A stretch of DNA of 32,000 nucleotides from Desulfocapsa sulfexigens DSM 10523 (GTDB lineage Bacteria; Desulfobacterota; Desulfobulbia; Desulfobulbales; Desulfocapsaceae). A model generated the notes under the pieces. It was not told the DNA's origin. It made no database searches and saw only the letters and a list, made by a program, of their open reading frames with translations. The position numbers and the translations under genes are program-made. The stretch covers positions 1,980,001 to 2,012,000 of the forward strand of contig NC_020304.1 in NCBI RefSeq assembly GCF_000341395.1, read 5' to 3'. Below are positions 1,241 to 24,991 of the stretch, piece after piece. The first letter of the stretch is position 1; each line of letters starts with the position of its first letter.

Positions 1241-2341
1241 CTATGAATGTTCTGGAAATAATTTATGTATTGCCTCTTTATTGGCTGCGACAACTCCCCG
1301 TTCTGTGATAAGGCCAGTCACCAGGCGTGCTGGCGTGATATCAAAGCTGTAGTTCAGTGCCCGGGTTCCAGGCGCGGTAAGTTGTACCGTCTCAATCCTG
1401 CCGTTATCGGTCAGGCCACTGATGGTGGTGACTTCATCGCCTGAACGCTCTTCAATGGGGATGTCGCTGCCATTGCTAATATTCCAGTCAAATGTGGAAG
1501 AGGGCAGGGCAACATAAAAAGGAATGTTGTTGTCATGAGCGGCCAGTGCTTTCAGGTAGGTTCCTATTTTATTTGCCACATCTCCTGTATGGGTGGTTCT
1601 GTCGGTTCCCACAATTACCATATCTACCATCTTCTGCTGCATAAGATGTCCTCCTGCGTTATCCGTTATCAGGGTGCAGGGTATTCCTTCCTGCTGCAGT
1701 TCCCAGGCAGTTAGTTTTGCCCCCTGGTTCCAGGGGCGTGTCTCGTCGACCCACACATGGACATCTATCCCGGCGTCCCTCGCCGCATAAATAGGAGCAG
1801 TTGCGCTCCCGTAGTCTACAAAGGCAAGCCAACCGGCATTGCAGTGGGTGAGGATATTGACAGTCCCACCACTCTTAGCCGTACTTATGTCCCTGATGAT
1901 CCCAGATCCATGTTGTCCGAGTGCCTTGCAGAAGGCAGCATCTTCGTCGGCAATTTCACAGGCTGTTTCAAAGACAATTCTTTTTTTGTCCTCCTCATCG
2001 GTTCCCTGCTCTGCTGCTTTGAGCACTCGATCAACTGCCCATTTAAGGTTTCTTGCTGTAGGTCTGCTTTTGTCGAGACGCTGACCACCATCTGCAAGGG
2101 CATTGGCCAGTTGACCAGGTCTGGCCTGCGCTGCTGCAAGGTGCATCCCAAAACCTGCTGTTGCCCCGATCAGGCCGGCTCCTCGTACGTGCATGTCCCG
2201 GATAGCCGTTATGGCGTCATCAACAGTGCAGAGAGATTCAATGATAAATTGATGAGGAAGTTTTCTCTGGTCAATGATCATAATCGTGTTGCTGTCGTCT
2301 GTTGGCCAGATTGTTCTGTAATGCTGATTTTTTATGTTCAT
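1241..2341 (-). CDS. mtnA: S-methyl-5-thioribose-1-phosphate isomerase (eIF-2B alpha/beta/delta family)
   Basis: 366 aa. N-terminus IIDQRKLPHQ...TAIRDMHVRGAGLIGATAGFG and the motifs ILTHCNAG and GTDRTTHTGDVANKIGTY are characteristic of MtnA. Confidence 0.85.
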   Translation of the reverse strand: MNIKNQHYRTIWPTDDSNTIMIIDQRKLPHQFIIESLCTVDDAITAIRDMHVRGAGLIGATAGFGMHLAAAQARPGQLANALADGGQRLDKSRPTARNLKWAVDRVLKAAEQGTDEEDKKRIVFETACEIADEDAAFCKALGQHGSGIIRDISTAKSGGTVNILTHCNAGWLAFVDYGSATAPIYAARDAGIDVHVWVDETRPWNQGAKLTAWELQQEGIPCTLITDNAGGHLMQQKMVDMVIVGTDRTTHTGDVANKIGTYLKALAAHDNNIPFYVALPSSTFDWNISNGSDIPIEERSGDEVTTISGLTDNGRIETVQLTAPGTRALNYSFDITPARLVTGLITERGVVAANKEAIHKLFPEHS

Positions 2342-2602
2342 GTTTGTGGTGTTTTAGTGAATTGTTTTTGTGAGACTAGCCGTGGAGGCTTCCCCTGAAA
2401 AGATAAACCATCGATTCTGCTTTAACAAGAGTCGTTCGGTTTTTGTCTGAATCGTGGTGTCGCTGTAAAGTTACAAGTTTGCAATATTTTCCGAGAATCG
2501 TTACAAAAATGTCACAATAACCATCCTGTATGTTTCTCTCTGAAATGAAAAAATGATTTTGAATGACCTTGCTGTTGGAGTGTTAGAGGTTCTCTGGCAT
2601 TC

Positions 2603-2618
2603 TGGCACGACTGTTGTA
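2603..2618 (+). promoter_or_regulatory. Sigma-54-like -24/-12 element upstream of amtB
   Basis: TGGCAC-N5-TTGT (TGGCACGACTGTTGTA). The spacing is correct for TGGCAC-N5-TTGC, but the -12 GC is GT. It lies about 180 nt upstream of the amtB ATG, and TCTGGCA is duplicated just upstream. Confidence 0.3.
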
Positions 2619-2798
2619 AGGAGGGGATAATTTTCTGTCTCTCTTGTGAAAATGTTTGTGGGGAGCACAGGTGGCAGGAGATGAAAACAACATATAGAGG
2701 ATTGCAGGTATGGATTGGAAGAGCCGTTTCTGTGATTTATTCAAAATTCGGGGGTTCTTTTCGGGAATCTTTCGAGTCTACATCCAGGGAGAAGAAAA

Positions 2799-4022
2799 AT
2801 GATTAGCGCTGCAGATACAGCCTTTATTCTGGCAGCGGCAGGACTGGTGTTGTTGATGACACCGGGGCTTGCCCTTTTTTACGCAGGAATGGTACGAAGT
2901 AAAAATGTTCTCGGTACCATGATGCAAAGTTTTTTTATGATAGCGCTTATCTCCATAGAATGGGTGTACCTTGGTTACTCCATGTCTTTTGGGCCGGATG
3001 TTGGTGGGGTGATTGGCGATCTTTCCTGGTTTGCTTTAAGTGGTGTGACGACTGCACCGAGCGCAGATTATGCGACAACCATTCCGCAGATCGTTTTTAT
3101 GATTTATCAGTGTATGTTTGCCATAATAACTCCGGCACTTATTACAGGAGCTTTTGCGGAGAGGGTTCGTTTCGTGCCGTTTCTTGTCTTTGCCTTTCTG
3201 TGGGCTGTTTTTGTCTATAATCCTGTTTGCCACTGGGTCTGGGGGAAGGGGGGCTGGCTTGGAAGTATGGGAGTCATGGATTTTGCCGGTGGCCTGGTTG
3301 TTCATGTGACATGTGGCGCGGCGGCTTTCGCTTCAATCCTCGTCATTGGGCCACGGCGCGGTTTTGGGAAGCGAAGTTTTATCCCCCACAGTCTGCCTCT
3401 CACGTTTATTGGAACAGGGCTACTCTGGTTTGGCTGGTTTGGCTTTAACGGCGGGTCGGCCCTTGCTGCAGATGAAGTGGCAGCTACTGCTTTTGTAGCA
3501 ACTCATCTTGCGGGTATGGCCGGTATGCTTATGTGGGTGATTGTTGAATGGGTTGTCCTTCGGCGCGCAACCACCCTTGGTGCGATGTCGGGTGCTATTG
3601 CGGGACTTGCAACCATTACTCCTGCTGCAGGCTTTGTCGGACCCAATTCTGCAATCATCATTGGATGTATTGCTGGTCTGGTCTGCTTTGGAGCCGTGAA
3701 CTTAAAAGTGAAATTGAAACTGGATGATTCTCTGGATGTTGTCGGGATTCATGGTGTGGGAGGAGCCGTTGGAACACTCTGCCTTGGGATTTTTGCTTCA
3801 ACCGCCGTGAATCCAGGCGGTGTCGATGGCCTGCTTGCCGGGAATATGGCTCAACTTTGGAAACAGGCTTTTGGGGTTGTCGTTGTGGGAGGATACACCT
3901 TGATTGTGAGCTGGATATTGTTGAAAGTCGTACACATTACCCTGGGTCTGAGAGTTTCTGAAGAGGCTGAGGTGGGAGGTGTTGATTATGCCGAGCATTC
4001 CGAAAATGCATACAATAGTTAG
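2799..4022 (+). CDS. amtB: Ammonium transporter (Amt family)
   Basis: 407 aa and polytopic. It carries the Amt signatures LLMTPGLALFYAGMVRSKN, DFAGGLVVH and VGIHGVGG. Confidence 0.95.
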   Translation: MISAADTAFILAAAGLVLLMTPGLALFYAGMVRSKNVLGTMMQSFFMIALISIEWVYLGYSMSFGPDVGGVIGDLSWFALSGVTTAPSADYATTIPQIVFMIYQCMFAIITPALITGAFAERVRFVPFLVFAFLWAVFVYNPVCHWVWGKGGWLGSMGVMDFAGGLVVHVTCGAAAFASILVIGPRRGFGKRSFIPHSLPLTFIGTGLLWFGWFGFNGGSALAADEVAATAFVATHLAGMAGMLMWVIVEWVVLRRATTLGAMSGAIAGLATITPAAGFVGPNSAIIIGCIAGLVCFGAVNLKVKLKLDDSLDVVGIHGVGGAVGTLCLGIFASTAVNPGGVDGLLAGNMAQLWKQAFGVVVVGGYTLIVSWILLKVVHITLGLRVSEEAEVGGVDYAEHSENAYNS

Positions 4023-9163: not shown

Positions 9164-10036
9164 ATGAGAATCAAAATACTCCCTATAGTAGCAGCCGGTT
9201 TATTAGTGTGTGGTGTTATCGAATCGAATGCTACGGAATTTAATGGAAGTGCCACAGGAGAATGGGTTAGAGGGTCAGTTGTCATTGACCAAAGTCTGTG
9301 GCCAGCGAATTATACCGGCGACGTGTGGGGAATGGTTAATCAGGATGACGGTGTCACCGATCCTTTAGCTACTCCACCACCCGCTACATCTCCAGCTTTC
9401 AGTCCGTCACAAAACCCGTCTGGAAGCCCAGCTATCCCGGATGAAAGCGTGTCGCCTACGGCACTTTTCTGGTGGGGAAACCCGGGTACTGGTCTTACAC
9501 AGCCTGGCTGGGATAAGGAGTCTTCACCTAATAAATTTAATTTTGATGGCGTGGGTAGTACAGCTCCTCTTGGTGTTATGGAGACCAACGCTGGTGAGAG
9601 GTTTAAGTTTGGTGACTTTTGGTATACAAACGGAGACACATGGAGCGCCAGGGGTGTGACAGCTGTTGATTTGGCTGTTGATTTTTACATCCAAGAGATT
9701 AACAAAGAATTTACGATGTCAGGTACATTTGGGATTCTGAACACTATAAATGATGGTGGGGATGTAGATGATCTTGTTTCCCTAAGCGGATTCCAAGGAA
9801 CAACAGAATATTTCAGCTATAACAATAAAGACTATATGTTTACTGTTCTTGGTTTTTCTCAAGATGGTGGGGTCACGATAATCAATAGTTACGTAGCTCC
9901 CGAAAATAGTATAAGCTATGCAGGGTTGTATGCTGAGATAGTAGAGGTTCCAGTCCCTGAGCCAGCAACTTTTCTGCTCTTTGGTGTTGGCGTGATAGGC
10001 TTGATTGGTACGAAATTTAGAAAGAAAAACGTATAG
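9164..10036 (+). CDS. Secreted PEP-CTERM sorting-domain protein (exosortase substrate)
   Basis: A GGAGG RBS lies 6 nt before the ATG at 9164. It has a signal peptide (MRIKILPIVAAGLLVCGVIESNA), a Pro/Ser-rich linker, and the C-terminal VPEPATFLLFGVGVIGLIGTKFRKK (PEP motif, TM helix, basic tail). Confidence 0.85.
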   Translation: MRIKILPIVAAGLLVCGVIESNATEFNGSATGEWVRGSVVIDQSLWPANYTGDVWGMVNQDDGVTDPLATPPPATSPAFSPSQNPSGSPAIPDESVSPTALFWWGNPGTGLTQPGWDKESSPNKFNFDGVGSTAPLGVMETNAGERFKFGDFWYTNGDTWSARGVTAVDLAVDFYIQEINKEFTMSGTFGILNTINDGGDVDDLVSLSGFQGTTEYFSYNNKDYMFTVLGFSQDGGVTIINSYVAPENSISYAGLYAEIVEVPVPEPATFLLFGVGVIGLIGTKFRKKNV

Positions 10037-10051
10037 CAGGGTTGTGCTGTG

Positions 10052-10081
10052 TTGAACTCATATTGAGTGGGGTGTTATAAT
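10052..10081 (+). promoter_or_regulatory. Sigma70-like promoter for the lasso precursor gene
   Basis: TTGAAC (10052-10057), an 18-nt spacer, then TATAAT (10076-10081). The -10 overlaps the ATG at 10080, which argues that the precursor starts at 10137. Confidence 0.45.
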
Positions 10082-10136
10082 GATAGAGCAAAGTGAAGGC
10101 TCAGTTGATAATGGTAAAAAAGGAATTAGTTCCTCC

Positions 10137-10292
10137 ATGCCTCCTAAAAAATTAGAGTATTCAAAATCTATTCTTATTAATCATGGGTCTGTTGTGAGGC
10201 TAACTGCTGGATGTGCGGGTTCAGGGGCCGATTCTGGTACATATAGTGAGAGTTCATTTATTGGTCCCGATGGTTCATGTCAGTCAACTTGA
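10137..10292 (+). CDS. Lasso peptide precursor (A): 24-aa leader plus 27-aa core GCAGSGADSGTYSESSFIGPDGSCQST
   Basis: The leader MPPKKLEYSKSILINHGSVVRLTA has Tyr(-17), Leu(-12), Gly(-8) and Thr(-2), as in the YxxPxLxxxGxxxxxTx RRE-recognition motif. The core starts with Gly1 and has Asp8 as the ring acceptor. It sits next to the full set of maturation genes. Confidence 0.7.
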   Translation: MPPKKLEYSKSILINHGSVVRLTAGCAGSGADSGTYSESSFIGPDGSCQST

Positions 10293-10325
10293 TTCTTGTT
10301 GTTAATATGTAGTCACAAAGAGAAA

Positions 10326-10357
10326 GTCGAAACAGGGTATCTGTTTCGACTTTTTTT
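10326..10357. terminator. Bidirectional intrinsic terminator between the precursor gene (+) and the cyclase gene (-)
   Basis: A perfect 10-bp stem, GTCGAAACAG-ggtat-CTGTTTCGAC, is flanked by AGAAA upstream and T7 downstream. Confidence 0.8.
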
Positions 10358-10380
10358 GTGTAAAGTGGTTTTCACCTGTC

Positions 10381-12246
10381 TTATCTTGTGGATTTTACCC
10401 ACGTCTCAAGTGCTAGTGCAAACCAAATTTCCCAGTTTTTATTCCCTCTGTGAAAGGCGTTTTCTTTAAATGCTTTTTGTTTATCATTAAGAGCAGACAG
10501 GAATTTGTCTTGTTCTATCCATCCAACTTCTGAAGATAACATCTTTTCACTTTTCTCTGTCAAACTGTAAGAGTCGAAGGCTTTTCCGAAGAAAAACGAG
10601 AAGTCTGCTTTGCTTTGTCGCTTTCGAATTAATTCTGGTAATAAATGATTCTGTTTTTGTCGTAGTATTTTTTTTATCTCTCCTTGGAGGTTGTGTTCGT
10701 ACTCTGGTACAGAGAATGAAAATTCTGCTATTCTTCGGTCAAGGAATGGTGATCTGTATTCAAGTTTTGCAATAGCATGGTATCTATCCATGGTTTCAAG
10801 GAAAAATGTATGAGTTCCCATCGCAATAATCGTGTTCTGCAAAAGGTTTCCTAGATTTGAGGAGGTTGTTCTCTGGTCGGAAAGAAGGATCTTCTCTCGA
10901 ATATTACTACGGTTGACAAAGACTGGTGAAATCCATGCAGGAAAAAGCTTATTATTCTTATTACATAGATTCCTACGAATAGCATGTGGAACCAGTGGCC
11001 ATAAAATGTTGAAGAGAAAACGTTTTATGGTATGGAGTTGGTTTTGGGAAAAGGAATAGCGTAAATGTGAAAACAGTGCTGGATACCTTTTATTTTTCAA
11101 GAGATCCAGGTATGGGAAACCAGATCCGGAAAACCACTCATCCCCACCAATGCCGGAGAGTAGAATCCTGGAACCACTATTGGTAACTTGTTTGATCAGT
11201 GCATTACGCATTGAAATATTTGGTATGTCTGGTGGTTCATACGTTTTGTGAACTTGCTTTTGCCATTGAGGTTCGTTGAAGTGTTGTGAATCTATCAAGT
11301 TTACTGAAATATTGTGCTCTTTGGAGACGGCAAGAATATACAAACTCTCGTCAAAAGGTAAGCCTGGGAAAACCATTCCATACACTACGGGGGCTGGTTT
11401 GTTTTTGAGTCTCAAAATATTGTGTGCCATGCCAACGACACATGAAGAGTCTAATCCACCGCTAAGCTCAATGCTTATGGGTGTCGAACTCCTGAGCCTG
11501 CTGGTCACTGATTTATTAAAAATCTCCAGGAAATGATTGGTGTAGTCCTCAGATTTTTTGTAATAGATTTGCTTAGTCGAGTTAAATGACCAATATCTGT
11601 GGCTGGTAAGACCTTGGTGTGAAACGGTTAGGTAGTGACCAGGAGAGAGACGATTAATCCCTTGGAACAAGGTTTCAGTTTTACTGCAAAAAGAAAAGAA
11701 GAGATATTCAGCCACCATTCCTTCGTTTGGCGATAGAATGACATCCGGATGTTCAGCCAGCTGCTTAATCTCGGAACTGAAAAGAAATTGCTCTGGAGTG
11801 AAGTGGTAATAAAATGGTTTGACTCCAATATAATCCCTGACGCAAATTAATTGTTGTTTCAGTGGATCCCACAGGGCAAAAGCAAAATCACCCAATAGGT
11901 GTAGAAATCCATCTACACCCCATTTTTTATACGTATATATTATGAGTTGGCTGTCTGGTAAGGAACTGCTTTGCCGTATACCAAGCTTGTTGAACAATTC
12001 TTCTCGGTTGTCAATTCGAGCATCGGCGGTAATTACGAGACCAGTTTCCGAGTCAGTGTGTGGTAATATTTCGGTTAGTGATTCCGGTGTAGTGTGCAGC
12101 ATGCTGTGGCCAAAGCCGATATGCTCTTGAATTAATGTATTTGTCCCGTCAGGACCACGGTGAGCACTGCTTTTCGCCATTCCTTGCAGGTGCGATGGAT
12201 TAATTGGTCGATTGTCCGAGTGATATATTCCGAAAATGCCACTCAT
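10381..12246 (-). CDS. Lasso peptide isopeptide-bond-forming cyclase (asparagine synthetase B-like; C protein)
   Basis: 621 aa with an AsnB-like fold and the PP-loop SGGLDSS. The N-terminus is MSGIFG, so Ser replaces the glutaminase Cys nucleophile. Its ATG overlaps the kinase stop (ATGA). Confidence 0.85.
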   Translation of the reverse strand: MSGIFGIYHSDNRPINPSHLQGMAKSSAHRGPDGTNTLIQEHIGFGHSMLHTTPESLTEILPHTDSETGLVITADARIDNREELFNKLGIRQSSSLPDSQLIIYTYKKWGVDGFLHLLGDFAFALWDPLKQQLICVRDYIGVKPFYYHFTPEQFLFSSEIKQLAEHPDVILSPNEGMVAEYLFFSFCSKTETLFQGINRLSPGHYLTVSHQGLTSHRYWSFNSTKQIYYKKSEDYTNHFLEIFNKSVTSRLRSSTPISIELSGGLDSSCVVGMAHNILRLKNKPAPVVYGMVFPGLPFDESLYILAVSKEHNISVNLIDSQHFNEPQWQKQVHKTYEPPDIPNISMRNALIKQVTNSGSRILLSGIGGDEWFSGSGFPYLDLLKNKRYPALFSHLRYSFSQNQLHTIKRFLFNILWPLVPHAIRRNLCNKNNKLFPAWISPVFVNRSNIREKILLSDQRTTSSNLGNLLQNTIIAMGTHTFFLETMDRYHAIAKLEYRSPFLDRRIAEFSFSVPEYEHNLQGEIKKILRQKQNHLLPELIRKRQSKADFSFFFGKAFDSYSLTEKSEKMLSSEVGWIEQDKFLSALNDKQKAFKENAFHRGNKNWEIWFALALETWVKSTR

Positions 12247-13547: not shown

Positions 13548-13679
13548 AATTTTGAAAGGAAACTTTTAATCTATATTACATGAAGTTTTTATATAAGAAT
13601 ATAGTGAGATATCGATATGTTATTTCTCTGGTGAATGCCGTCTGACCAGACTTTTACTAAATATTTTTGATGCAGTATT

Positions 13680-14171: not shown

Positions 14172-14852
14172 TTAGTAATGTAAAAGAGAACCTTCGTTTT
14201 TTGCTACTTTTAAACCATAATAAATGGAAACAAAACCAGTCGCTAATGAAACTATAGAGAGTATGGCGAGGAATAGAAGCTGATTATGTACATCAATAAT
14301 TCCTGCCCCATTTAAGAGTATCTGGCGTATCGCCTCCAGTCCATGGGTGATTGGAAGTATCACCGAGAATGGTTTGAGCCAACCTGGTAGTACGGTTACC
14401 GGATACATTACTCCACCAAGCAATCCAGAACTCATAATCATTAACCCACCGATCGGATTACCCTGTTTGAAGACAATTATAAAAGCGGCCGAGACAAGGC
14501 CAATACCAAAAAAAGGGAGTAGTGTGAGCAGAAATGCCAGAGACAATGCGATAATGTTCACTGATTGTATCGACATATCAAAGAGGTAAATACCTACAAG
14601 AATATAAAAGAAAATTCGGAAGCTGGTGGAAAAAAGCTTGTACACATAGGAGGACAGTAAAATAGTGATGATGGATGTTGGGGTTACCAGAAGTGATTCA
14701 AGGGTACCAACAACCTGCGAGGTGCGAATTTCGTTGGCAAATGTGTTGGTAGAGATGGTGAAGTAATCTGAAAGTGCTATTCCAATGATTACAAAAGAAA
14801 AATAATCACCACCATAGGGTTCCAGTTGAGAGACTTGGTTGCCCTCAAACAT
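14172..14852 (-). CDS. ABC-2-type transporter permease, main reading frame (C-terminal 226 aa)
   Basis: It is multi-TM and hydrophobic and lies directly downstream of the ABC ATPase. The expected N-terminal segment is in a different frame (see 14789..14995). Confidence 0.75.
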   Translation of the reverse strand: MFEGNQVSQLEPYGGDYFSFVIIGIALSDYFTISTNTFANEIRTSQVVGTLESLLVTPTSIITILLSSYVYKLFSTSFRIFFYILVGIYLFDMSIQSVNIIALSLAFLLTLLPFFGIGLVSAAFIIVFKQGNPIGGLMIMSSGLLGGVMYPVTVLPGWLKPFSVILPITHGLEAIRQILLNGAGIIDVHNQLLFLAILSIVSLATGFVSIYYGLKVAKNEGSLLHY

Positions 14853-14995
14853 TTTAGATAGAAGAAAAATGAAAAGGTAGTGAGTATAATACCAAACCCC
14901 TGTGTTGCATATTGCATGCGGTAGCTGGTCGCAATTTTGAAATCCCGCTTGAAAAAAGCGAAAGGTTTTGCAAAAAGTGTTGGCCTTGCCCTCAT
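14789..14995 (-). pseudogene. N-terminal fragment of the same ABC-2 permease in another frame (apparent 1-nt frameshift)
   Basis: The sequence MRARPTLFAKPFAFFKRDFKIATSYRMQYATQGFGIILTTFSFFFYLK looks like an ABC-2 permease N-terminus plus TM1. Its ATG overlaps the ATPase stop (ATGA). A -1 shift at the CTAAAATG run (about 14850-14857) joins it to MFEGNQVSQLEPYGGDYF... Confidence 0.5.
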
Positions 14996-15819
14996 ATTGA
15001 ATTGTCCCTAGTGGTATTTATGCCTGCTCCAGCAAGTGGTGAATTCTGAAAAAAGTCAACCAGGTTGCTGAATGCCAGTTCAATGTTCTGGGAACCAGAG
15101 TCTGACATCTCTTCTAATTTTCCACTGTAAAGAACCTTTCCTTTATGGAGTATGGTCGCATGATCACATATCTCTTCAGCTTCATGGAGATTATGTGTAC
15201 ACCAGATAATAGTTTTTTGTTCCTGTCGGGCAAGGGTCTCTTTAGTGAAAGTGAGGAGCTTTCTGGTGGCAATGGGATCGAGACTGGTAGTGGCCTCGTC
15301 CATAAGGAGAACTTCTGGATCAGAAAGCATGGCTCTTGCAATTGCCAGGCGCTGTTTCTGGCCGGAAGAATAAGACATGAATCGAGAATCGGCTTTGTCC
15401 TCCATTCCAGTGAGTTGCAAGGCTTTGTTGATTCGTTCAGCCTTTACTGAGCCATGTAAATTATAGAGTGTGGCAAAAAAATCGAGATTTTCACGTCCGG
15501 TAAGCCGCCAGTAGAAAGTTCGGTCATTCGTGCTGACCAGCCCAATTTTATTTCTGATTGCCAGAGATTGTGTGGCCAGGGAGAGTCCTGAAATTGATCC
15601 TTCACCACTGTCAGGGGTAACCAGAGTGGAAAGAATTTTGATAAGTGTTGTCTTGCCGGCACCATTTGGTCCAAGTAAACCCATGATTGTTCCTTTTTCA
15701 ACTGTCAGGGAGACGTTGTCAAGAGCAAGGGTTTGACGGGGCTTGCGAAACAAAAATGTCTTCCAGTTTCGTTCAGTAAAGGTTTTTGAAATATTATGGA
15801 GCTCAATTGCTGGAAGCAT
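14992..15819 (-). CDS. ABC transporter ATP-binding protein (export/immunity component of the lasso cluster)
   Basis: Walker A GPNGAGKTT, signature YSSGQKQRL, Walker B LLMDEATTSLD, H-loop CTHNL. Confidence 0.9.
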   Translation of the reverse strand: MLPAIELHNISKTFTERNWKTFLFRKPRQTLALDNVSLTVEKGTIMGLLGPNGAGKTTLIKILSTLVTPDSGEGSISGLSLATQSLAIRNKIGLVSTNDRTFYWRLTGRENLDFFATLYNLHGSVKAERINKALQLTGMEDKADSRFMSYSSGQKQRLAIARAMLSDPEVLLMDEATTSLDPIATRKLLTFTKETLARQEQKTIIWCTHNLHEAEEICDHATILHKGKVLYSGKLEEMSDSGSQNIELAFSNLVDFFQNSPLAGAGINTTRDNSI

Positions 15820-15864
15820 ATAATTATGTCAGGAAGGTAGTGTGCGAGAAAAATGATCTGGCGA

Positions 15865-15893
15865 ATTATACGTGACAGCGAAGGGGATGTAAA
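15865..15893 (-). promoter_or_regulatory. Sigma70 promoter of the lasso maturation/export operon
   Basis: On the minus strand: TTTACA (15893-15888), a 17-nt spacer, then a perfect TATAAT (15870-15865), about 45 nt upstream of the ATPase ATG. Confidence 0.55.
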
Positions 15894-15935
15894 CAGGAAT
15901 AGGTAGATTGTAGCAAGAGCGAAGGGCAATACAAT

Positions 15936-15965
15936 CCCCCTTTTCCAAAAAAAATGAAAAGGGGG
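15936..15965 (-). terminator. Strong hairpin downstream of the ComEA-like gene (terminator-like, no clear U-tail)
   Basis: A perfect 10-bp stem, CCCCCTTTTC / GAAAAGGGGG, encloses a 10-nt A/T loop, 29 nt past the stop at 15994. Confidence 0.45.
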
Positions 15966-15993
15966 CCAGGTGATTGTCAGGTTGGTTGGAAAG

Positions 15994-16248
15994 TTACTCT
16001 ACGGTGATTTCCTTAGAGAGTTTCTCAAAAACTTTTTGACCTATCCCTTTTACCTGTACGATATCTTGGGGAGATTTGAAATTTCCATTATCTTTACGGT
16101 ACTGCACTATTGCGGCAGCTTTTGCTTCACCAATCCCGGGAAGTGTGGCCAATGTTTTCTCATCGGCGGTGTTAATGTTAATGGCAGCAATTGCTATATT
16201 TACGGTTAGGAATAAGAGGGTTAATAAGAGTAGTATCGTTTTCTTCAT
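15994..16248 (-). CDS. ComEA-family helix-hairpin-helix DNA-binding protein (secreted)
   Basis: An AAGGAG RBS precedes the ATG at 16248. It has a signal peptide (MKKTILLLLTLLFLTVNIAIAA) followed by INTADEKTLATLPGIGEAKAAAIVQYRKDNGNFKSPQDIVQVKGIG. Confidence 0.8.
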   Translation of the reverse strand: MKKTILLLLTLLFLTVNIAIAAININTADEKTLATLPGIGEAKAAAIVQYRKDNGNFKSPQDIVQVKGIGQKVFEKLSKEITVE

Positions 16249-16491
16249 GACGGTCTCCTTTTCTGTAACATTATAGTTTATAAGTACTTTCACCTGTTTT
16301 CAGAAGGGAGCCTATCATTGAGGTGCAGTCTTTGTCAAATTAAAATGTATGAAAAAAATACATACAATTTAGTGATAGGAAGTGTGTGATCTGTAGGGCG
16401 CGAAATTATTAAAAGGATGGAGAAAGTTGGCAGAAAAATAAAAATGAAAATTTATTTGTAATCGGCAAGCTTTGGCGAACAGACCAGGAAC

Positions 16492-23818: not shown

Positions 23819-24991
23819 CTATTGAAAAATCTTTTTTACACCTTCCCAACCCAGACGAAAAGGACGGCACACATTGTAGAGGTAGCATAACTTTCCAGGA
23901 AACGTAAATCTGCGGTAGTCTTCAATGGTAGGATTAAACAGCATTGTCAGAATAAGCCGTAACCGTGCCATGTTCGAATCCATGCACTTAAGTTGCCAGG
24001 AAGTGAAACGGCTGTTTTCGCCCTGGATTGTATTGCTCTTTGCAGGATCAAGAAAGATATTCTCCACCGATGTAGCCATATTTAATGCGTGTTGGTCCAG
24101 CCTCAGAATTTCCATGACTTTCTTTGGCATCTCTGTTGCAAAGAGACGTTGTGCTGCAAGCAGCCCTGTCGCAACCATTCTTTTTGCAGACCATTGTTCT
24201 GCAAGAAAAAGGACCAAATTCCAATCCATCTTTTTGTTTTGTGTGACAATTTCATGAACAGAAAACAACCATTCCAGGCGACCCCAGATATGTTTGGAAC
24301 CGTGAATGCAAAGATAGATAAGAAGATCCTCATTGCTTAGTGAAGGAACAGTGTAGTTCAGTAATTGAGCGTCAATCAGGCGATCTTGAAAAACATCCAT
24401 TGTTAACGCGTGTGGCAAACACCGGCCAGATAACTCCCAATGCAATTCCACGATAACGCCGGATTGAGAGTGGATGAAATTCAGATTGTCTTCCGTTTTT
24501 ATAAGGTGCTTCAGCTGTGAATGTGAAAATTGGATTTCAGGGGTATATCCTGATTTATTGAGGATTTCATAGACGGAAGAGACATCATTTATACTTACAA
24601 GGACATCGAGATCACAAAATGGACGAAGAGAGAGGTCGTTATAGAGATTACAGGCAAGTAGCGGGCCTTTGAAAGCGACAGCTGAAATATTATGTTCAGT
24701 AAGTAAGTTGATAAGCTGAATCAACACACCGACTTTACCAAGGTTGGATATGCCAATAGACCGCACGGTTCTTTTAATATCAGCAGCAATATTCTCTGGT
24801 ATCAGTTCCGGGCAACAATTGTTCCATGATGAGTGAATTAATGGTAGAAGTCCGTGGCGTGTGGCGAGTGAAAAAAAATGATTCAGGTCTATACCATCAT
24901 TTATCGCCTCAACAACTTTCTTGCGTAAAGCTGATGGCTCAATTGTTTTCAGGGAATAGAGGATGAGGTGTTGGCAATTATTTTGATTCAT
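23819..24991 (-). CDS. Nucleotidyltransferase family protein (NTP_transf_5-like)
   Basis: 390 aa. The region AVAFKGPLLACNLYNDLSLRPFCDLDVLV and the overall pattern match the 'uncharacterised nucleotidyltransferase' family. It overlaps the wecB 3' end by 14 nt. Confidence 0.65.
   Translation of the reverse strand: MNQNNCQHLILYSLKTIEPSALRKKVVEAINDGIDLNHFFSLATRHGLLPLIHSSWNNCCPELIPENIAADIKRTVRSIGISNLGKVGVLIQLINLLTEHNISAVAFKGPLLACNLYNDLSLRPFCDLDVLVSINDVSSVYEILNKSGYTPEIQFSHSQLKHLIKTEDNLNFIHSQSGVIVELHWELSGRCLPHALTMDVFQDRLIDAQLLNYTVPSLSNEDLLIYLCIHGSKHIWGRLEWLFSVHEIVTQNKKMDWNLVLFLAEQWSAKRMVATGLLAAQRLFATEMPKKVMEILRLDQHALNMATSVENIFLDPAKSNTIQGENSRFTSWQLKCMDSNMARLRLILTMLFNPTIEDYRRFTFPGKLCYLYNVCRPFRLGWEGVKKIFQ

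Follow-up and report, generated by a model that had tools for sequence, protein, structure and literature searches.

The described systems closest to the locus reported here include lasso peptide clusters in which a homolog of HPr kinase is encoded alongside the lasso enzymes, and we compare with them a cluster in a 32,000-nucleotide stretch of the Desulfocapsa sulfexigens DSM 10523 genome (contig NC_020304.1, positions 1,980,001 to 2,012,000; this whole stretch is called the window below). Within the window, a 70-amino-acid open reading frame (ORF), UWK_01776, is very probably the precursor (A) gene of the adjacent D. sulfexigens lasso cluster. To our knowledge, no lasso peptide has been characterized from the Desulfocapsa lineage. 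In lasso classes I and III a disulfide can stand in for steric plugs, and the class III example BI-32169, from an actinobacterium, has 19 residues, 9 of them in the ring, and a bond between Cys6 and Cys19. In clusters of the paeninodin type, represented by the kinases PadeK, ThcoK, and SyanK, the split-B lasso genes include one for an HPr kinase homolog, which takes the linear precursor as its substrate and modifies the C-terminal Ser (PMC8498205). In Bradymonas sediminis FA350, the kinase BsfK phosphorylates ring Ser3 of BsfA, a precursor ending in Asp, in a reaction that is stimulated by B1 (PMC10368454).

The window shares with the Bsf system split B1 and B2 genes, a cyclase, and an HPr-kinase-like K, and its precursor shares with BsfA Tyr-17, Leu-12, a Gly1-Asp8 ring, and a non-Ser C terminus, the two cores beginning GCAGSGAD (window) and GTSGNEVD (BsfA). 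K is 27% identical to BsfK over 200 amino acids (E 4e-16), and the window B1 is 24% identical to BsfB1. The differences are that BsfA carries Ile at -2, lacks Cys, and is phosphorylated at Ser3, whereas the window peptide has Thr-2, Cys2 and Cys24, Ala3, and a conserved Ser5; that the window has no nucleotidyltransferase gene between its lasso genes and an exporter of the ABC-2 two-gene type; and that its precursor lies on the opposite strand, an arrangement not mentioned for Bsf (PMC10368454). The cluster resembles the paeninodin type in having an HPr kinase homolog inside a split-B lasso cluster, and K has an intact nucleotide-binding P-loop (GESGWGKST) and a DD motif (LITDD), but the paeninodin-type kinases modify a C-terminal Ser (PMC8498205) and the window precursor ends in Thr27. 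Because there is no C-terminal Ser, we do not file the peptide as paeninodin type. With BI-32169 (PMC4289311) the window peptide shares Gly1 and a single ring Cys-tail Cys disulfide, which for the window peptide is only predicted, and it differs in its 8-residue ring, its Cys2-Cys24 pair, and its core of 27 amino acids. The best-scoring curated models are the NF033528 and NF033521 precursor families and the NF033535 cyclase family, whose wider family shares B1, B2, C, A, K, and ABC genes; the window departs from them in that both peptide and cyclase score below the cutoffs, the order is (B2)-B1-K-C, and A is inverted. As judged by sequence, the predicted lasso precursor belongs to the kinase-associated group and is akin to the cyanobacterial-type family. 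Its departures from known cases are the inverted A gene in what is probably a PEP-CTERM operon, Ser-14, a kinase without a C-terminal Ser, the ABC-2 exporter, and the variable position of B2; these five leave the peptide within the known lasso kind.

RESULTS AND DISCUSSION

UWK_01776 as a very probable lasso precursor

The gene and the parts of its product are as follows.

10080..10292, plus strand: precursor gene, long form, 70 amino acids plus stop, annotated as hypothetical protein UWK_01776
10137..10292, plus strand: short form, 51 codons plus stop, from Met20; the in-frame 3' part of the 70-amino-acid ORF
10158..10208, plus strand: leader recognition segment YSKSILINHGSVVRLTA, Tyr-17 to Ala-1, the region matched by NF033528 and NF033521
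10209..10289, plus strand: predicted core peptide GCAGSGADSGTYSESSFIGPDGSCQST, 27 amino acids, with the Gly1-Asp8 macrolactam, Cys2, Cys24, and a C-terminal Thr

A preliminary description of the window, made from its letters alone, had proposed the short form as a lasso precursor. The ORF at 10137..10292 translates exactly as given there, and a protein word-index search showed the 70-amino-acid ORF to be identical to UWK_01776 of D. sulfexigens DSM 10523. Counting back from the junction of Ala43 and Gly44, which reads LTA/G, gives Tyr-17, Ser-14, Leu-12, Gly-8, and Thr-2, and this recount agrees with the four of five conserved leader positions, with Ser in place of Pro-14, that had been reported. 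A Thr as the penultimate leader residue and a small first core residue with Asp at position 8, both expected of a lasso precursor, are thus present.

We asked how often such a pattern arises by chance, requiring Y-17, L-12, G-8, T-2, G1, and D/E8 with no more than 30 amino acids to the stop. None of 1,000 composition-matched random 32-kb windows contained this strict pattern, and a looser version occurred in 0.7% of them; the lasso motif match exceeds chance, the expectation being about zero per window. The frame itself is also constrained. Against P0002, the closest homolog, which lies on the metagenome contig L002, the 27 core codons show 16 synonymous and 5 nonsynonymous differences (proportions pS 0.80 and pN 0.08), and over the stretch between Lys24 and the stop the pN/pS ratio is 0.24. 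The contrast between pS and pN therefore indicates that the frame is translated and under strong purifying selection, and the small gene is a real coding gene.

As expected of a lasso precursor gene, the ORF is adjacent to genes for a lasso cyclase, an RRE/B1 protein, and a B2 peptidase. Its end lies 88 nt from the stop of the convergent cyclase gene.

10381..12246, minus strand: lasso cyclase C, with Asn_synthase and GATase domains; best NCBIfam model NF033535
12243..13205, minus strand: HPr-kinase-like lasso peptide kinase K, with partial matches to PF07475 and TIGR04352
13272..13547, minus strand: B1, PqqD-type leader-binding (RRE) protein, PF05402 (E 1e-16) and the lasso PqqD models NF033530 and NF033536
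13680..14129, minus strand: B2, transglutaminase-like leader peptidase, PF13471 (E 2e-22) and NF033537 (97 bits, cutoff 33)
14172..14852, minus strand: ABC-2 permease, by domain match
14992..15819, minus strand: ABC ATPase, by domain match

The cyclase matches NF033535 with 452 bits (E 4e-135), below the cutoff of 525 bits. The ABC-2 permease and ABC ATPase, a pair conserved in the orthologous clusters, are the probable exporter. Other places for a precursor offered no candidate: the B2-B1 gap (13548..13679), the region upstream of the ABC genes (15820..16490), and both strands of about 9900..10500 held only ORFs of 20 to 40 amino acids without the motif. A scan of 9800..10600 with Rfam gave REN-SRE as its sole match (E 0.42), which we take as chance.

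Conservation in orthologous clusters

Ten orthologous loci (L002, L083/L084, and L085 to L091) were picked via the cyclase, at identities from 51% upward (51 to 71% where measured). The check named in the preliminary description, a conserved small ORF at the same position in orthologous clusters, found one in all ten: each locus has a homologous ORF of 59 to 69 amino acids that converges on C. The shared order comprises GalU, APS kinase, ABC genes, B1, K, and C on one strand and the convergent ORF behind a PEP-CTERM gene, on the far side of which come glnA, glnD, and P-II, and in every ortholog the PEP-CTERM gene immediately precedes the precursor on the same strand. The convergent orientation, which the preliminary description had singled out as unusual, is thus real, clade-wide, and stable rather than an accident of annotation.

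The wider family, with cyclases about 30 to 49% identical, comprises at least 80 genome loci from Cyanobacteria, Acidobacteriota, Rokubacteria, Chloroflexota, Methanobacteria, and other groups. Their order is mostly B1-B2-C-A-K-ABC, and a peptide of the form Y..P.L...G.....T.G...D/E directly follows C on the same strand. An uncultured Desulfocapsa (L003, cyclase 49% identical) has the arrangement B1-B2-K-C-A, in which A shares the strand of C and overlaps its end; the PEP-CTERM gene is on the opposite strand. The same-strand position of A after C in the wider family and in L003 therefore indicates that this position is ancestral and that A was inverted in the D. sulfexigens clade.

These comparisons also bear on whether the small ORF might instead be a conserved small protein of a PEP-CTERM/exopolysaccharide locus that is no substrate of the lasso enzymes, its leader likeness being coincidental. 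In favor of this, it always comes directly after the PEP-CTERM gene on the same strand (the two share 4 nt in L087), the lasso enzymes are encoded on the other strand, and a polysaccharide biosynthesis region surrounds it. In L003, however, the homolog shares the strand of the cyclase gene, whose end it overlaps, and the PEP-CTERM gene is opposite; in dozens of unrelated phyla a peptide with this leader and core design comes after C in the absence of any PEP-CTERM gene; Thr-2, Gly1, and Asp8 are invariant; and the best NCBIfam matches are lasso precursor models. We regard this explanation as highly improbable.

The precursor assignment gains further support from the peptides themselves. Fifteen distinct peptides, drawn from the fetched orthologous loci and from relatives found by profile search, were compared. 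Tyr-17, Leu-12, Gly-8, Thr-2, Gly1, and Asp8 are invariant in all 15, and Ser5 is present in 14. In an alignment of seven of the sequences (A3), as in further relatives, the Tyr, Leu, Gly, and penultimate Thr of the leader segment do not vary. The cleavage site at LTA/G and the Gly1-Asp8 ring proposed earlier are supported, and so, through cluster adjacency, the homologous ORF in 10 of 10 orthologous loci, and the motif residues kept in 15 of 15 peptides, is the identification as a lasso precursor. Ortholog cores are 16 to 29 residues long, and those of the wider family range from 16 to more than 50, so that the 27-residue core is not unusually long, as had been thought. The C-terminal residue among the orthologs is T, V, D, K, H, or L, with Thr in 8 of the 15 peptides.

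Curated models give the same assignment, below cutoff for the window peptide. When ten precursors were scanned against 18,950 NCBIfam models, the top models for all ten were NF033528 (lasso_cyano, cutoff 33 bits) and/or NF033521 (lasso_leader_L3, cutoff 19 bits), with the match falling on the segment from Tyr-17 to Ala-1. The precursors of L090 (22.9 bits), L087 (19.6), and L003 (19.1) pass the NF033521 cutoff. The family is sparsely represented: the word-index protein search returned one homolog only, P0002, and an exhaustive profile search of 1.84 billion representative proteins returned 12 related peptides, 4 of them new, and 1 spurious repeat protein. A metagenome scan with the pattern LTAGC[AGP]GSG, taken from a four-sequence alignment, gave 257 pattern matches, of which none was confirmed.

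Several observations weigh against the assignment of UWK_01776 as a class III-like lasso precursor. The gene does not share a strand with the genes of its enzymes. The canonical Pro-14 of YxxPxL, present in 12 of the 15 peptides, is replaced by Ser in the window peptide and in L085 and by Ala in L002; a P(-14)A variant of BsfA is still cleaved (PMC10368454). The window peptide falls below both precursor cutoffs (13.9 of 33 bits for NF033528 and 13.5 of 19 bits for NF033521), and the C-terminal Ser that the characterized paeninodin-type kinases require is missing. B2 was not found in L083, L087, or L091 (loci of 10 to 14 kb), even with the B2 profile, and the lack of a nearby B2 in some sister clusters means that processing in the clade may not be fully canonical. 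Finally, Desulfocapsa is strictly anaerobic, and disulfide formation is therefore an assumption.

Where B2 is present, its position varies: it precedes B1 in the window, across a 133-nt gap, lies between B1 and K in L086, L089, and L003, and lies beyond the PEP-CTERM gene in L090. The B2 proteins of the window and L089 are 31% identical, and the cyclases are 55% identical. The K stop overlaps the C start by 4 nt (12243..12246), and the same overlap is called in L083, L086, L087, L089, and L091, which suggests translational coupling.

In L088 the cyclase (1597..3471) is called as two pieces, of 378 and 164 amino acids, which points to a frameshift, pseudogenization, or an assembly error; the convergent precursor there, of the Cys6/Cys24 type, is intact. 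A separate irregularity concerns the ABC-2 permease of the window (region 14172..14995), which is listed as 226 amino acids from ATG 14852. Gene calls for L001, a near-identical contig, and for the orthologs give it about 274 amino acids and an overlap with the end of the ATPase gene, and the true start is therefore probably upstream of 14852.

Translation start and transcription

The following features surround the start of the precursor gene and its end.

9164..10036, plus strand: PEP-CTERM/choice-of-anchor-K protein gene, directly upstream of the precursor; likely start ATG 9164, with a GGAGG Shine-Dalgarno sequence
10052..10081, plus strand: sigma-70-like consensus match TTGAAC-18-TATAAT (10 of 12 positions, TG before the -10), overlapping ATG 10080; a putative promoter
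10065..10074, plus strand: Shine-Dalgarno-like GAGTGGGGTG, 5 nt before ATG 10080
10323..10360, unstranded: hairpin with T-run, 13-bp stem with A-run and T-run flanks; dG -25.2 kcal/mol, z -4.3

According to the preliminary description, the precursor has its own promoter, which favors the 51-amino-acid form. On that account the function would be the same, but translation would begin at ATG 10137, on a transcript of its own initiated at the TTGAAC-18-TATAAT site. The site is a 10-of-12 match with an extended -10 TG, and its -10 overlaps ATG 10080, so that the resulting transcript would lack the long-form start. The 24-residue leader of the short form would retain the whole segment from Tyr-17 to Thr-2, and leaders of 21 to 24 residues are found in cyanobacterial relatives. 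However, a site of this type is absent from the same position in all nine orthologs compared, and promoter-like sites are no commoner than in shuffled sequence (18 against 15.6 expected in 6.8 kb; 3 against 3.4). Nor is a conserved promoter visible in the upstream intergenic DNA, where the alignment of six loci is too diverged (48% column identity). Met20 is not conserved, being Leu in P0002 and absent from all other orthologs as well, and the AGGA that precedes ATG 10137 is 12 nt upstream, a weak spacing.

The long form has the better-placed signals. GAGTGGGGTG, 5 nt before ATG 10080, is homologous to GAGTGAGGTG of L002 and AATGAGGTG of L085, each of which precedes the GTG start of its own locus; within this alignment, TGGGGTGTT before the long-form start is homologous to TGAGGTGAT, the Shine-Dalgarno sequence of L002 and L085. 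Ortholog leaders are 34 to 45 residues long, compared with 43 in the long form and 24 in the short form. No terminator was found in the 43-nt spacer between the PEP-CTERM gene and the precursor, a spacer that is 34 to 78 nt in the orthologs (a 4-nt overlap in L087), with both genes on the same strand. As judged by comparison with relatives, the long 70-amino-acid form, and not the 51-amino-acid form, is the one conserved. Taken together, the Shine-Dalgarno sequence at 10080, the leader lengths, the unconserved Met20 and promoter site, and the terminator-free spacer mean that cotranscription with the PEP-CTERM gene and translation from 10080 are better supported. The claim of an own promoter favoring the short form is thus not sustained, and we consider a 51-residue product unlikely, if still worth bearing in mind.

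The PEP-CTERM gene is probably cotranscribed with the precursor, a transcript structure that we infer from this arrangement. The two genes form a unit bracketed by the glnA terminator and the hairpin at 10323. None of 200 shuffles gave an equally stable structure, and an equivalent hairpin with a T-run is present in L002, L083, L086, L089, L090, and L091. This element probably acts as an intrinsic terminator in both directions, serving the precursor and cyclase genes that converge on it.

Predicted disulfide, phosphorylation, and maturation

The core has exactly two Cys, Cys2 in the ring and Cys24 in the tail, as in class III. Among the 15 peptides the core Cys count is always 0 or 2, and each of the seven peptides with Cys2 has exactly one further Cys, 3 to 6 residues from the C terminus. 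Of the remaining eight, L088 has Cys6 and Cys24, three have both Cys in the tail, and four lack Cys altogether. The ring-to-tail pair noted in the preliminary description is therefore a conserved feature of Cys2 peptides, and the paired counts are the best available support for a disulfide, which itself is predicted from sequence; they also favor the proposed cleavage site and ring. The suggestion that Tyr12 and Phe17 act as plugs did not hold up, neither residue being conserved even among orthologs of the Cys2 type. The precursor is best described as putatively class III-like and kinase-associated, without a C-terminal Ser.

It is conceivable, though we think it improbable, that the ORF is the precursor but that its product is no threaded class III lasso, being branched-cyclic instead or having Cys residues that remain in the thiol form or have a different function, for example in binding metal in an anaerobe. 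The strictly anaerobic producer, a tail rich in Gly, Ser, and Pro, and the lack of any conserved bulky plug residue in the tails of Cys2-type orthologs would fit such a product. Against it, the Cys residues are always paired, a Cys near the C terminus always accompanies Cys2, and a disulfide is able to replace steric plugs in classes I and III, as exemplified by BI-32169 (PMC4289311).

Returning to the threaded, disulfide-bonded product, we propose a maturation scheme by analogy with the characterized split-B systems (PMC8498205, PMC10368454); leader binding, cleavage, threading, the disulfide, the phosphorylation site, and transcript structure are all predicted in it, as is any biological activity of the product. 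The precursor would be made as the 70-amino-acid form, transcribed with the PEP-CTERM gene and ending at the shared terminator. B1 (PqqD) would bind the leader segment Y-S-K-S-I-L...G...L-T-A, and B2 would cut after Ala43. The cyclase would then link the side chain of Asp8 to the amine of Gly1, so that an 8-residue macrolactam encircles the 19-residue tail, and a disulfide between Cys2 in the ring and Cys24 in the tail would lock the two together in a class III-like topology. K would probably phosphorylate the precursor before cleavage, and the ABC-2 transporter would export the product. By analogy with the known kinases, the nearly invariant Ser5 and the C-terminal Thr27 are the candidate phosphorylation sites.

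These elements can be combined into a broader and more speculative reading, which at present we think rather doubtful. In it the lasso peptide of this strictly anaerobic clade would be both phosphorylated and locked by a disulfide (class III/IV-like), with K targeting ring Ser5 or the C-terminal Thr; expression of the precursor would come from the operon that encodes a PEP-CTERM surface protein sorted by exosortase; and sister clusters lacking B2 would use a noncanonical or trans-encoded leader peptidase. We know of no described lasso kinase that targets either a ring Ser5 or a C-terminal Thr. If this reading is true, expression from the PEP-CTERM operon would couple lasso production to the exopolysaccharide/biofilm program.

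Significance and additional observations

With this assignment, a protein annotated as “hypothetical” acquires a function, and a sulfur-disproportionating anaerobe's otherwise orphan lasso cluster acquires its substrate. No mention of UWK_01776, of the core sequence, or of a Desulfocapsa lasso peptide was found in the literature, RODEO listings being outside the scope of that search. The peptide family is rare, with 12 related peptide clusters among the 1.84 billion representative proteins, and its narrow clade switches among a predicted ring-to-tail, a predicted tail-to-tail, and no disulfide, which makes it a compact system for the question of disulfide versus steric plug. Because its usual target, a C-terminal Ser, is missing here, the kinase might lead to a phosphorylation site of a new kind. 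The lesson for genome mining is that precursor genes can be inverted and lie in a neighboring operon and that start codon calls need to be checked against orthologs.

Upstream of the PEP-CTERM gene lie glnA and glnD, and the lasso cluster as a whole lies inside a polysaccharide locus that includes GalU, APS kinase, WecA, WecB, and TagA-like genes. A second lasso-like system at 22.5 to 31.8 kb, suggested by an NTP_transf_5 gene, was considered and rejected: the region holds polysaccharide genes of the WecA/WecB/TagA type and no cyclase. The gene in question (23819..24991) encodes an uncharacterized nucleotidyltransferase (PF14907) and lies beside a GNAT gene and a 95-amino-acid ORF, with neither a cyclase gene nor a PqqD gene.

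In the wider family, a cyanobacterial relative (L020, 9052..10137) has four tandem, near-identical precursor genes after the cyclase gene, each with a core of 40 or more amino acids. Precursors from clusters of Acidobacteriota, Rokubacteria, and Terriglobales close with Met-rich tails ending in Cys-Leu (...MMMMCL, ...MMGCL, ...MPCL, and ...MMMACL), and these Met-rich/Cys-Leu precursors were located as follows.

L006, 3446..3721: Met-rich/Cys-Leu precursor
L007, 8601..9044: Met-rich/Cys-Leu precursor
L009, 8879..9115: Met-rich/Cys-Leu precursor
L011, 7846..9060: Met-rich/Cys-Leu precursor

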